A stretch of DNA of 64,000 nucleotides, from NCBI RefSeq assembly GCF_056712565.1, contig NZ_CM160072.1; one strand, written 5' to 3'. This document shows, one piece after another, positions 11,901-36,551 of this stretch. The notes beneath the pieces are model-generated. The model made no database searches. It saw only the letters and a program-made list of their open reading frames with translations, and was not told the DNA's origin. Position 1 is the first letter of the stretch. Each line of letters starts with the position of its first letter. A program made the position numbers and the translations under genes.

Positions 11901-12207
11901 TGCGACTCACGGCACGGCGATTGTGCTGGGCGAAGCGGGTATCAATCCGCGTCTGGTGAACAAGGTGCATGAAGGCCGTCCGCACATTCAGGACCGTATT
12001 AAGAATGGCGAATATACCTACATCATCAACACCACCTCAGGTCGTCGTGCGATTGAAGACTCCCGCGTGATCCGTCGCAGTGCGCTGCAATATAAAGTGC
12101 ATTACGACACCACCCTGAACGGCGGCTTTGCCACCGCGATGGCGCTGAATGCCGATGCGACCGAAAAAGTAATTTCGGTGCAGGAAATGCACGCGCAGAT
12201 CAAATAA
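8986..12207 (+). CDS. carB: carbamoyl-phosphate synthase large subunit
   Basis: 1073-aa ORF with duplicated ATP-grasp halves; synteny. Confidence 0.97.
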
Positions 12208-12261
12208 TAGCGTGTCATGGCGGATATTTTTCATCCGCTAATTTGATCGAATAACTAATAC

Positions 12262-12287
12262 GGTTCTCTGATGAGGACCGTTTTTTT
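12262..12287 (+). terminator. carB rho-independent terminator
   Basis: cggttctctgatgaggaccg stem followed by ttttttt; the IS200-like insertion begins immediately after the T-run. Confidence 0.6.
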
Positions 12288-12996
12288 GTGCACAGAAAAC
12301 CCCCAGCTAGGCTGGGGGTTCCGGAAAGCTTTCAGCTTTGAGCCAGTTATTAAAACCCCTTTTGATTTGTTAAAACACCTTGCGGTCTGGCAACTGCAAG
12401 TGTCAAACAAGAAATCAAAAGGGGGTCCCAATGGGGAACGAAAAGAGCTTAGCGCACACCCGATGGAACTGTAAATATCACATAGTATTTGCGCCAAAAT
12501 ACCGAAGACAGGTGTTCTACAGAGAGAAGCGTAGAGCAATAGGCTGTATTTTGAGAAAGCTGTGTGAGTGGAAAAGTGTACGGATTCTGGAAGCTGAATG
12601 CTGTGCAGATCATATCCATATGCTTGTGGAGATCCCGCCCAAAATGAGCGTATCAGGCTTTATGGGATATCTGAAAGGGAAAAGCAGTCTGATGCCTTAC
12701 GAGCAGTTTGGTGATTTGAAATTCAAATACAGGAACAGGGAGTTCTGGTGCAGAGGGTATTACGTCGATACGGTGGGTAAGAACACGGCGAAGATACAGG
12801 ATTACATAAAGCACCAGCTTGAAGAGGATAAAATGGGAGAGCAGTTATCGATTCCCTATCCGGGCAGCCCGTTTACGGGCCGTAAGTAACGAAGTTGGAT
12901 GCAAATGTCAGATCGTGTGCGCCTGTTAGGGCGCGGCTGGTAAGAGAGCCTTATAGGCGCATTTGAAAAACCTCCGGCTATGCCGGAGGATATTTA
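12288..12996 (+). mobile_element. IS200-like insertion sequence (IS200/IS605 family), about 709 bp; boundaries approximate
   Basis: Contains a Y1 transposase gene; perfect subterminal palindrome ccccagc-tag-gctgggg at 12301-12317 (the characteristic IS200 left-end hairpin) and a second palindrome cctccggc-tat-gccggagg at 12971-12989 near the right end; the carB-caiF spacer is about 710 bp longer than in K-12. Confidence 0.8.
12431..12889 (+). CDS. tnpA: IS200 transposase TnpA (HUH / Y1 single-strand transposase)
   Basis: 152 aa from ATG 12431: MGNEKSLAHTRWNCKYHIVFAPKYRRQVFYREKRRAIGCILRKLCEWKSVRILEAECCADHIHMLVEIPPKMSVSGFMGYLKGKSS..., containing the HxH (HIHML) motif and catalytic Tyr region of IS200 TnpA. 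Confidence 0.9.
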   Translation: MGNEKSLAHTRWNCKYHIVFAPKYRRQVFYREKRRAIGCILRKLCEWKSVRILEAECCADHIHMLVEIPPKMSVSGFMGYLKGKSSLMPYEQFGDLKFKYRNREFWCRGYYVDTVGKNTAKIQDYIKHQLEEDKMGEQLSIPYPGSPFTGRK

Positions 12997-13178
12997 TTTG
13001 CCCATTAAGTAAATCTTTTGGGGAATCGATATTTTTGATGACATAAGCAGGATTTAGCTCACACTTATCGACGGTGAAGTTGCATACTATCGATATATCC
13101 ACAATTTTAATATGGCCTTGTTTAATTGCTGCAAAACGAGTCATAGCCAGTCTTTTAATTTGTGAAACTGGAGTTCGT

Positions 13179-13574
13179 ATGTGTGAAGGATGTGTTGAAA
13201 AACCACTCTATTTGTTAATCGCCGAATGGATGATGGCTGAAAACCGGTGGGTGATAGCAAGAGAGATCTCTATTCATTTCGATATTGAACACAGCAAGGC
13301 GGTTAATACCCTGACTTATATTCTGTCGGAAGTCACAGAAATAAGCTGCGAAGTTAAGATGATCCCTAATAAGCTGGAAGGGCGGGGATGCCAGTGCCAG
13401 CGACTGGTAAAAGTGGTTGATATCGATGAGCAAATTTACGCGCGCCTGCGCAATAACAGCCGGGATAAATTAGTCGGCGTAAGAAAGACGCCGCGTATTC
13501 CTGCCGTTCCGCTCACGGAACTTAACCGCGAGCAGAAGTGGCAGATGATGTTGTCAAAGAGTATGCGTCGTTAA
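13179..13574 (+). CDS. caiF: transcriptional activator of the cai and fix operons
   Basis: 131 aa from ATG 13179 (MCEGCVEKPLYLLIAEWMMAENRWVIAREISIHF...); the track ORF from 13074 is an upstream extension. Confidence 0.9.
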   Translation: MCEGCVEKPLYLLIAEWMMAENRWVIAREISIHFDIEHSKAVNTLTYILSEVTEISCEVKMIPNKLEGRGCQCQRLVKVVDIDEQIYARLRNNSRDKLVGVRKTPRIPAVPLTELNREQKWQMMLSKSMRR

Positions 13575-13589
13575 TGTCATTTCGTTGAT

Positions 13590-13690
13590 ACCGTGCGACC
13601 TGGTCGCTGGATGCGATGCTGGCGCATCTTATCCGGCCTACGGTTGCTTTACAGCCAGGTCGGATAAGGCGTTTATGCCGCATCCGACGA
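13590..13690. repeat. REP / BIME elements
   Basis: gatgcgatgctggcgcatcttatccggcctac and inverse ggataaggcgtttatgccgcatccgac. Confidence 0.75.
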
Positions 13691-13692
13691 TG

Positions 13693-14283
13693 TTACCGTT
13701 TCGGCGTCACATCCGTCGTCCCCTGCAAACGGGGGCGATTTTCCTCCATTTGCCTCAGTGGCTGCGTTTCATGTAACGCTGCATGACAGCGCCCGACAAG
13801 ATCCTGATACTCTTTGGTATTCAACCGTTTCCAGTGTAACTCGTCGTCACTCACGCTGCGTACAGCGCGGGCTGGCGTACCCATCAACAACTGGCGTTTC
13901 TCGCCGCGAAAGCCCGCTTTGACAAAGCTCATAGCGGCAACAATGCTCTCTTCGCCAATGACCGCGCCATCCATAATCACGCTGTTCATCCCGACCAGTG
14001 CATCGCGACCAATCACACAACCATGCAGGATCGCTCCGTGCCCGATATGACCGTTTTCCCCAACGATGGTGTCAGTGTCGCAGTAGCCATGCATAATGCA
14101 GCCATCCTGAATATTGGCTCCCGCTTGCACGATCAACCGCCCGTAGTCACCACGCAGTGAGGCGAGTGGGCCGATGTAGACACCGGCTCCCACAATCACA
14201 TCGCCAATCAATACTGCACTGGGATGGACAAACGCCGTCGGGTGAACAACCGGAATTAACCCCTCAAAGGCGTAATAGCTCAC
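13693..14283 (-). CDS. caiE: carnitine operon protein CaiE (hexapeptide-repeat acyltransferase-like)
   Basis: 196 aa from GTG 14283 (protein [14 protein letters not shown]...), or 203 aa from GTG 14304; left-handed beta-helix hexapeptide repeats; last gene of caiTABCDE. Confidence 0.88.
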
Positions 14284-31083: not shown

Positions 31084-34177
<3,094 letters not shown>

Positions 34178-34229
34178 ACTTTTTCCATTTCAATTAACCG
34201 CACTGCGGATTACGTGGTAAATCAACAAA

Positions 34230-36551
34230 TCACAAAGTGTTTTGATACGGCAGAATGTTCGAACGCAGCATCTCTTGCGTACCCAGACCGTAGTTGGAGC
34301 TCAGGCCGCGAAGTTCGATGTTAAAGCCGATTGCGTTGTCATATACCGCATGTTGTTTATCGTTATCCCAACCGTTCAGCTTCCGCTCGTAACCGACGCG
34401 AATCGCATAGCAGCAGGAGCTGTATTGCACACCTAACATAGAGTCGGCTTGCTTGTTCGCATTGGTGTCGTAGTAGTAGGCCCCAACAATGGACCAACGA
34501 TCGGCAATTGGCCAGCTGGCGACGGCACCTACCTGCGAAATACCATTCTTATATTGCTCAGCAGTGGAATAGTACTTAGGCAGCGTTGCCTGAATATATT
34601 CCGGGCTGGCGTAACGGTAATTCAGCTGTACCAGACGGTCTTCATCCCGACGGTATTCAATGCTGGAGTTACTGGTCGCTACGTTATCCAGACGTGTATC
34701 GTACTGAATCCCGCCACGCAATCCCCAACGATCAGAGATGCGCCAGTAAGTATCGCCTGCCCATACCAGTGAGCCCGTTTTGTCGTCATTCTCCCATGTT
34801 ATGTTGTCATCGCCAGTGCGAGACTCCGTGAAATAGTAGATTTGACCAACGGAAATATTAAAACGTTCAACGGCAGCATCATCATATATGCGAGATGTGA
34901 CACCGGTCGTCACCTGGTTAGCGGAGGCAATACGGTCAAGACCGCCGTAAGTCCGGTCCCGGAACAGGCCGGAGTAGTCAGATTGCAGCAGCGACGAGTC
35001 GTAGTTATAGATTTTGCTCTGATCGCGATATGGCACATACAGATACTGCGCGCGTGGTTCCAGTGTCTGGGTATAGCCCGGCGCCAGCATTTCCATATCA
35101 CGCTCGAAGACCATTCTACCGTCTACCTTGAACTGCGGCATTACACGGTTAGCGGACTCTGCTAGCTTGGTCGTGTTTCTGGAGTTATACCAGTCAAGAT
35201 TGGTTTGCTGATAATGGGTTGCCAGCAACTTCGCTTCAGTATTGATGCTGCCCCAGTTATTAGAGAGCGGCAGATTGATGGTCGGTTCCAGGTGAACACG
35301 AGTCGCCTCTGGCATGTCATCTCTGGTGTTAACAAAGTGCACCGCCTGGCCGTAAATTCGCGTATCGAAAGGACCGACATCGTTTTGATAGTAGTTAACG
35401 TCTAACTGCGGTTCTGCCGAGTAGCTACTGGTGTTCTGCTCGCTGAAGACCTGGAACTGCTTGGTTGAAACGGTGGCATTGAAGTTTTGCACCGCATAGC
35501 CAACGCTGAATTTTTGCGTTGCGTAGCCGTCGGTACTGGAACCGTACTTGTTATCGAAATCATTGAAGTAGCTAGGATCGCTGACCTTGGTGTAGTCGAC
35601 GTTGAAACGCCACACCTGATCCATGACCCCGGAGTGGTTCCAGTAGAATAACCAACGACGTGAACTGTCATCGTTCGGGTGTTCATCTTTATAGACTTTA
35701 TCTGAAGGCAGATAGTCCAGTTCCATCAAGCCAGCGCCCGCCTGGGAGAGGTAGCGGAATTCGTTCTCCCACATGATATTGCCACGACGATGCATATAAT
35801 GCGGCGTGATGGTGGCATCCATATTTGGCGCGATGTTCCAGTAATATGGCAGGTAGAACTCAAAGTAGTTGGTGGTGGTGTACTTGGCGTTCGGGATCAA
35901 GAAACCAGAGCGACGTTTGTCACCCACCGGCAACTGCAAATAGGGGCTATAAAAGATCGGTACCGGACCCACCTTAAAGCGGGCGTTCCAGATCTCCGCA
36001 ACTTGTTCTTCGCGGTCATGAATAATTTCGCTACCTACCACGCTCCAGGTGTCAGAACCCGGCAGACAGGAGGTAAAGCTACCGTTATCCAGAATGGTAT
36101 AGCGGTTTTCGCCACGTTGTTTCATCAGGTCCGCTTTACCGCGGCCCTGGCGACCCACCATCTGGTAATCACCCTCCCAGACGTTGGTATCTTTGGTGTT
36201 CAGATTCGCCCAGCCTTTCGGCCCTTTGAGGATCACCTGGTTATCGTCGTAATGGACATTACCGAGCGCATCAACGGTACGTACCGGCTCCGGTTGTCCT
36301 GGTGCCTCTTTTTGATGGAGCTGCACTTCGTCGGCCTGCAGACGGCTGTTACCCTGCATGATATCCACGCTGCCAGTAAACACGGCGTCATCCGGGTAGT
36401 CCCCTTTCGCGTGGTCAGCATTGATAGTCACGGGTAAGTCATTGGTATCGCCCTGTACCAGAGGACGGTCATAGCTTGGCACGCCCAACATGCACTGTGA
36501 GGCGAGGTCGGCTGCCAGTCCCTGTTGACTATAAAGGGCGGTGGCAATCAT
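34230..36551 (-). CDS. lptD: LPS-assembly outer-membrane protein LptD; the annotated-type start (ATG at 36582) is out of frame with the body, so this is an apparent signal-peptide frameshift
   Basis: 773-aa in-frame body [25 protein letters not shown]...; upstream the minus strand reads atg aaa aaa cgt atc ccc act c ctg gcc acc atg att, i.e. MKKRIPT in another frame, leaving 16 nt where 18 are required. See findings. Confidence 0.85.

Follow-up and report, generated by a model that had tools for sequence, protein, structure and literature searches.

The current model of transposition in the IS200/IS605 family comes from IS608 of Helicobacter pylori and ISDra2 of Deinococcus, in which TnpA acts on single-stranded DNA, recognises subterminal hairpins and excises the element as a single-strand circle that is pasted 3' of its target on the lagging-strand template (PMC2806898, PMC5027513). 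The regulation of the IS200 group is best described for the prototype, Salmonella IS200. There, the left hairpin is a bidirectional Rho-independent terminator that blocks impinging transcription and stops ~85% of incoming transcripts, a stem-loop in the leader cuts tnpA translation ~20-fold, the antisense art200 RNA and Hfq give further repression, and the processed leader acts in trans as a small RNA (PMC4513863, PMC5435999).

Here we describe an element of this group that lies between carB and caiF in a window of 64,000 nucleotides (the whole stretch of DNA analysed, from contig NZ_CM160072.1). We consider it likely that this is a complete and apparently functional IS200C which was inserted once, after the T-tract of a terminator, in an ancestor of the ST95-complex lineage, that the control of caiF is essentially as in IS-free relatives, and that the element serves mainly as a lineage marker.

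Identity, ends and parts of the element

The extent of the insertion was determined by excising it in silico, joining the flanks (400 bp) and using them as a query against 5,426 complete E. coli genomes, which placed it at window positions 12288-12998 (711 bp, + strand). The joined flanks are 100% identical, without a gap, to the empty carB-caiF sites of CFT073, 536, Nissle 1917, LF82, E2348/69, ATCC 25922 and many others. Since the sequence left after excision equals the empty spacer of B2 strains in this way, the length of 711 bp is exact and a target duplication is absent. The T residues at the junctions make 12286-12996 and 12287-12997 arithmetically equivalent to 12288-12998, and the choice among these ends was settled by comparing ~60 independent copies (Y. 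pestis IS1541, elements of Vibrio, Edwardsiella, Pluralibacter and Brenneria, and six E. coli IS200C copies), in which the constant part starts GTGC(A/C)CAG and finishes ...GGATATTTATT (ATTTATT). A previous sequence-only reading had proposed a 709-bp element at 12288-12996. Its start is retained after alignment to reference copies, while its end falls 2 nt short and is moved to 12998, on the evidence of the empty sites and the ~60 copies. The 709-bp ends were also rejected on the length of the T-tract, as they would leave a run of T10, while T8 (B2 strains) or T9 (K-12) is found at the empty sites compared. The T-tract of the carB terminator (12281-12287 and 12999 in the window, 34112-34120 in K-12) is thus itself polymorphic in E. 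coli.

Compared with K-12, the sequence diverges from the spacer at 12288, and agreement resumes just before GCCCATTAAG. Pairwise alignment to K-12 with MAFFT put the left junction of the occupied site in the wrong place, and excision in silico followed by BLAST was used instead. The carB-caiF spacer of K-12 measures 261 bp (34039-34299), and the caiF start codon at 13179 lies 180 bp past the right end of the element, in line with the approximate distances of 260 bp and 180 bp given earlier.

The element is a complete IS200C, of the IS200 group within the IS200/IS605 family, and this identity is already public: RefSeq calls the gene at this site 'IS200/IS605-like element IS200C family transposase' in UTI89, S88 and APEC O1, in an annotation that covers the transposase gene without the element ends. 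Over its 711 bp the element is 100% identical to the CFT073 copy named IS200C; identity is 98-99% with three further E. coli copies that were compared, and 87% with IS1541. The same element, with the same TnpA (WP_000526115.1), is found in CFT073 (C_RS02590) and in UTI89 (UTI89_RS00190), and only the genomic site distinguishes it from the CFT073 copy. The assignment to IS200 made in the sequence-only reading, which would have fallen with a lack of nucleotide homology to IS200, is therefore borne out both by this homology and by the RefSeq name at the site.

The transposase gene, tnpA, occupies 12431-12889 (+) and encodes a 152-aa Y1 (HUH) protein. It is the sole annotated gene in the 711 bp; the other ORFs of at least 40 aa overlap tnpA or its leader, and the element is without tnpB. 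The protein matches Pfam Y1_Tnp (PF01797, E=2.2e-36) and the NCBIfam equivalog for IS200/IS605 transposases (NF033573, 142.4 bits against a cutoff of 55), and it can be aligned from end to end with TnpA proteins of known structure from Sulfolobus elements, IS608 and ISDra2 (PDB 2ec2, 2f4f, 2a6m for IS608 and 2xm3 for ISDra2). Its catalytic residues are present, with the HUH motif as H61-I-H63 and the tyrosine as Tyr125, the residue altered in Y125F, a catalytically dead mutant of the IS200 TnpA (PMC4513863).

Both ends of the element carry hairpins. On the left, AACCCCCAGC-TAG-GCTGGGGGTT (12298-12320, +) has 10-nt arms that are complementary at 10/10 positions. On the right, a subterminal hairpin, CCTCCGGC-TAT-GCCGGAGG (12971-12989), is followed by a ATATTTATT tail, and the whole segment (12971-12998, +) is terminator-like on both strands; the right terminus of the element reads ...TTATT. 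The two hairpin regions, each preceded by AAAA, repeat one another in direct orientation (78% alike), and a repeat analysis of the element found no terminal inverted repeats joining the two ends. The hallmarks on which the first identification had relied (a 152-aa Y1 transposase, a perfect left-end palindrome and no terminal inverted repeats) are thus all present by Pfam, NCBIfam and repeat analysis, as is every feature of the IS200 group that can be checked in silico: Y1 HUH, Tyr125, subterminal hairpins, no duplication, a T-rich target, tnpA only, a length of ~0.7 kb and a structured leader.

In this leader, an imperfect stem (12356-12424, +), formed by pairing of 12356-12371 with 12409-12424 (16-nt arms, 94% complementary; Rfam), holds the AAGGGGGU ribosome-binding site. 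Homology to Salmonella IS200 predicts an art200 (STnc490) antisense small RNA of ~90 nt on the minus strand, at approximate coordinates 12350-12440, which would be complementary to the tnpA leader as well as to the first three tnpA codons; Rfam shows the leader to be conserved. The Rfam model RF01405 (STnc490) matches the left 124 nt of the element at full length, left-end hairpin included (12298-12421, +; 146.4 bits against a gathering score of 56). It should be noted that this model matches the tnpA-sense strand, including the left-end terminator hairpin, whereas the small RNA that it names, art200, is described as antisense; the model seems to represent the sense leader. Two sub-threshold Rfam matches were set aside: that to Ysr202 (32 bits against 315) is not meaningful, and a second one to STnc490 (12969-13104, 20 bits) reflects the right-end hairpin only.

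The likeness to Salmonella IS200 therefore extends to a single tnpA, a left-end terminator hairpin at ~nt 11-33, a leader stem-loop that sequesters the ribosome-binding site, an art200/STnc490 region and Tyr125. The two differ in length, with 707 bp quoted for Salmonella IS200 against 711 bp here, a difference that is partly a matter of how the flanking T's are counted. Regulation and the effects of the small RNA (e.g., on invF) were demonstrated in Salmonella, while for the present copy regulation is predicted by homology. By analogy, IS200C would be transcriptionally self-contained, with a left terminator hairpin, an occluded ribosome-binding site, an antisense small RNA and a terminator-like right end. 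IS1541 of Y. pestis shares the 24-nt left-end hairpin and the ends (GTGC.CAG... and ...GGATATTTATT), and it too sits after a hairpin and a T-run; it differs, besides its 87% identity, in its length of 710 bp and in its many copies, including tandem pairs, against one copy in the UTI89 chromosome. Among the E. coli copies of IS200C, one (NZ_CP040269.1) starts ATACTAAGAA instead of GTGCACAGAA in its first 10 nt and is without a terminator-like left flank; its left end is possibly damaged or recombined.

The copy between carB and caiF is, in contrast to what a relic would look like, apparently functional. An inactive IS200 that marks an old event, and that now makes no functional transposase or small RNAs, would accord with the very low frequency at which IS200 transposes and its mostly dormant state (PMC4513863). 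It would also accord with the UTI89 chromosome, where a single matching place was found, which is therefore its only IS200 copy and indicates no expansion in the lineage. However, the ORF is full length and retains HUH and Tyr125, both ends and the leader structure are complete, and CFT073, with 21 matching places in its chromosome, holds a copy of 100% identity, all of which makes a dead element very unlikely.

Insertion beside intrinsic terminators

The carB gene ends with a stop codon at 12207 and is followed by an intrinsic terminator at 12260-12287 (+), identified by a terminator scan and consisting of a hairpin, ACGGTTCTC-TGAT-GAGGACCGT (12260-12281), and a run of T7 (12281-12287). The element adjoins this T-run, in agreement with its earlier placement directly after the carB terminator. 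We asked how common such a position is using loci with the exact 24-nt left-end hairpin in species-representative genomes. The 45 nt to the left of each of the matches listed gave 118 distinct flanks, 108 of which contain a hairpin and a T-run (five or more T among the final 8 nt, and an upstream fold of -8 kcal/mol or lower). The same criterion selects 1.2% of 45-mers drawn at random from these loci, or 6.6% if random 45-mers that end in TT are taken. When only T-rich flanks are compared, 93% of the IS left flanks reach a fold of -12 kcal/mol or lower against 10% of other T-rich TTNTT sites, and 75% against 3.8% reach -15 kcal/mol or lower.

The consensus of the 118 listed flanks is TTNTT, with T at -1 in 105 of them and at -2 in 116, and with mostly T at -4 and -5; the left flank in the window is T7. 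In these flanks, insertion has mostly occurred 6-9 nt (median 7) past the last G/C pair of the hairpin; this spacing is 7 nt at the carB terminator and 9 nt at the right end of the element itself. Each of the six E. coli copies that were fetched closely follows the end of a gene in the same orientation (cof, luxS, a hypothetical gene, gndA, ugd and rnb), and five of the six flanks have a hairpin and a T-run. Judging from these flanks, the position of the element after the carB terminator is not due to chance and is explained by a general site preference of the element, a strong one for a hairpin with TTNTT behind it. The pattern of hairpin and T-run is not new, since a recent preprint reported the association with terminators in aggregate for the family, and read it as limiting transposase expression (10.1101/2025.07.22.666184).

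On the family model, IS200C would enter by single-strand 'peel and paste', in which the Y1 HUH transposase cuts and rejoins one strand, guided by hairpins and with no target duplication. The target at this locus was the T-tract of the carB intrinsic terminator, with insertion 3' of it. The left-end hairpin at 12298-12320 would be the subterminal hairpin that TnpA recognises, and, in the manner of the IS608 guide sequences, the A-rich stretch immediately 5' of each hairpin could base-pair with the T-rich sites of cleavage. IS200C shares with IS608 and ISDra2 the Y1 HUH transposase, the subterminal hairpins, the lack of terminal inverted repeats and of target duplication, and a short target on whose 3' side the element is inserted. 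It differs from them in that both carry tnpB and have defined targets, TTAC and TTGAT, while IS200C here is without tnpB and has a T-rich TTNTT target beside a hairpin. The cumulative GC skew rises (is positive) across the window, and the locus lies at 36 kb in UTI89, which is numbered like K-12; on these two grounds, the top (+) strand of the element is on the presumed lagging-strand template.

The association with terminators could partly be a product of the survival of harmless insertions instead of targeting, and genome data alone do not separate the two. We tentatively raise a further idea, which we regard as doubtful: that IS200-group transposases target terminators as such, because a GC hairpin followed 6-9 nt on by TTNTT in single-stranded DNA would mimic the right end of the element itself (hairpin and ATATTTATT), with no need for selection for harmless sites.

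Two observations on related copies were made in the course of this comparison. In Y. pestis, IS1541 occurs in tandem (L068 2660-3393, L070 12604-13337, L067 and L114), with ...ATTTATT of one copy abutting GTGCCCAG (GTGCCC...) of the next at a 710-bp spacing, so that the second copy lies inserted right after the right-end hairpin of another. The exact 24-nt left-end hairpin also appears in distant groups among the matches listed (L003-L122), namely Oxalobacter, Peptococcaceae, a Bacillota MAG, Mailhella/Desulfovibrio, Saccharibacteria, Elusimicrobiaceae, Vibrio, Brenneria and Yersinia. Many of the listed matches are at the ends of MAG contigs, which is expected because repeats break assemblies.

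The caiF promoter and the effect of the insertion

Downstream of the element, caiF (13179-13574, +; 131 aa, WP_000333104.1) is intact, and the ORFs of caiTABCDE and fixABC are full length. From the right end of the element to the caiF ATG, the 180 bp match IS-free B2 strains without a difference. The interval between caiF and caiE holds, directly after caiF, two sub-threshold matches to naRNA4 (REP/BIME-type repeats; window 13549-13719, +).

The best CRP/FNR-type candidate site found by a motif scan, CAGGATTTAGCTCACA (13048-13063, +, centre 13055.5), is ~46 bp downstream of the element, although counting matches to the FNR/CRP consensus yields many with 6-7 of 10 positions and is insufficient alone to fix the caiF operator. 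Literature searches on the caiF promoter, primer extension and FNR/CRP found no mapped caiF start site. Eichler and colleagues reportedly placed the start 82 nt upstream of the ATG in 1996, with a CRP motif at -41.5. We take this start to be window position 13097, which puts a motif at -41.5 exactly at 13055.5 and the end of the element at ~-99, so that all the elements required by a class II promoter would lie downstream of it. In the study of Myers et al. 2013, the top FNR site for caiF is likewise at -41.5, and a sigma70 ChIP peak at K-12 34,197 (window 13076) has a signal of 21 under aerobic and 364 under anaerobic conditions. Thus, the candidate CRP/FNR-type site, a -10-like hexamer and the position of the K-12 sigma70 peak are all downstream of the element, which ends ~46 bp and ~99 bp before the class II CRP/FNR-type site and the presumed start, respectively.

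A simple scan of 12150-13250 found no sigma70-like promoter, including any directed outward from the element. This null result offers no support for an outward IS promoter, and the scan also misses the activator-dependent promoter of caiF. Searches of the literature pairing IS200 with caiF returned nothing relevant, and none was found that pairs caiF with UTI89, ST95, S88, APEC O1 or IHE3034. Since the promoter candidates and the sigma70 peak are downstream, the right flank is unchanged, both ends bear terminator-like hairpins and no outward promoter was found, a large effect of the element on caiF is unlikely. The predicted core promoter of caiF is untouched, and the element is therefore mainly a lineage marker.

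One result points the other way. The centre of the FNR ChIP-seq peak that Myers et al. 2013 assign to caiF is given as 34,059 in the main table and as 34,065 in the supplement. In the window this corresponds to ~12228-12234, just past the carB stop. In K-12 coordinates, the insertion point follows the peak centre by ~55-60 bp, the -41.5 site by ~115 bp and the sigma70 peak by ~135 bp. For three other peaks of the same study, taken as calibrators from a part of the genome with unchanged coordinates, the published centre and the best FNR motif are 2.5 bp (pdhR), 23.5 bp (carA) and 42.5 bp (can/yadG) apart. A weak FNR-like candidate, CAGATATTTTTCAT, which matches 6/10 positions, is centred at K-12 34,058.5.

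The element could accordingly have moved DNA that matters for caiF, i.e., the DNA under the FNR peak centre and possibly H-NS or NarL sites, 711 bp away from the promoter, and so have changed how the carnitine pathway is repressed, or induced under anaerobic conditions, in ST95. The peak centre to the left of the element and the weak site beneath it would fit this, given that the calibrator peaks fall within 2.5-43 bp of their best motifs, as would the repression of caiF by H-NS and NarL at unmapped sites. However, two features from the same study, its top FNR site (-41.5) and the sigma70 peak under anaerobic conditions (34,197), are downstream of the element, and the upstream motif matches only 6/10 positions. 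At ~160 bp from the start, such a site is also too distant for classical class I or class II activation. With the 180-bp promoter region unchanged and the cai and fix genes intact as well, we think altered regulation improbable. The sequence-only reading had suggested that the element may disturb FNR/CRP-dependent induction unless the caiF promoter elements all lie downstream of 12996. The candidate site, the -10 and the sigma70 peak do lie there, whereas the K-12 FNR peak centre is upstream, and on the promoter features an effect on FNR/CRP control of caiF is not favoured.

Distribution and origin of the occupied site

The site is occupied in 128 of the 5,426 complete E. coli genomes, where occupied means that a 1,201-bp query made up of the element and both flanks was covered to 80% or more at a single place. 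The best 30 of the 128 are all 100% identical to the query over 1,201 bp. Among the occupied genomes listed are those of UTI89, S88, APEC O1, IHE3034, NU14, IMT5155, UM146 and the type strain ATCC 11775. Of these strains, S88, NU14, UM146 and ATCC 11775 presumably belong to the ST95 complex. UTI89, IHE3034, APEC O1 and IMT5155 are members of that complex (PMC4232414). The simplest reading of this distribution and of the sequence identity is one insertion in the ancestor of the ST95-complex lineage followed by vertical inheritance, and the occupancy supports the proposal, made when the element was first noticed, that it can serve as a strain or lineage marker.

IS200/IS605 elements excise precisely, and a loss would therefore be scarless, so the 711 bp could in principle be ancestral and deleted from most E. 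coli. However, the spacer is matched in 5,425 of the 5,426 genomes and only 128 are occupied, B2 strains such as CFT073, 536, Nissle 1917 and others have an empty site with identical flanks, and copies elsewhere in E. coli have unrelated flanks. We consider ancestral presence with loss elsewhere hardly credible and rejected it on this distribution. At the carB-caiF site of strain FY26 (NZ_CP101741.1, 632-1471), a truncated tnpA pseudogene precedes a complete tnpA, with ~381 extra bp, an arrangement due either to partial duplication of the element's left portion or to an assembly artefact.

By itself, the finding matters little, as the element is a known IS, and commonly used genomes already carry its annotation at this position. 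In practical terms, its presence or absence provides a simple PCR marker for the ST95-complex lineage. It should also be kept in mind that when K-12 regulatory maps are moved to these pathogens, the carB-caiF spacer differs by 711 bp; if FNR occupies the upstream DNA and this matters for caiF, the element would change the control of the carnitine pathway in ST95. For the IS200 group, if the mimicry of the right end were true, any co-oriented terminator on the lagging-strand template would be a potential landing pad, and the insertion between carB and caiF and the tandem IS1541 pairs would follow from one rule.
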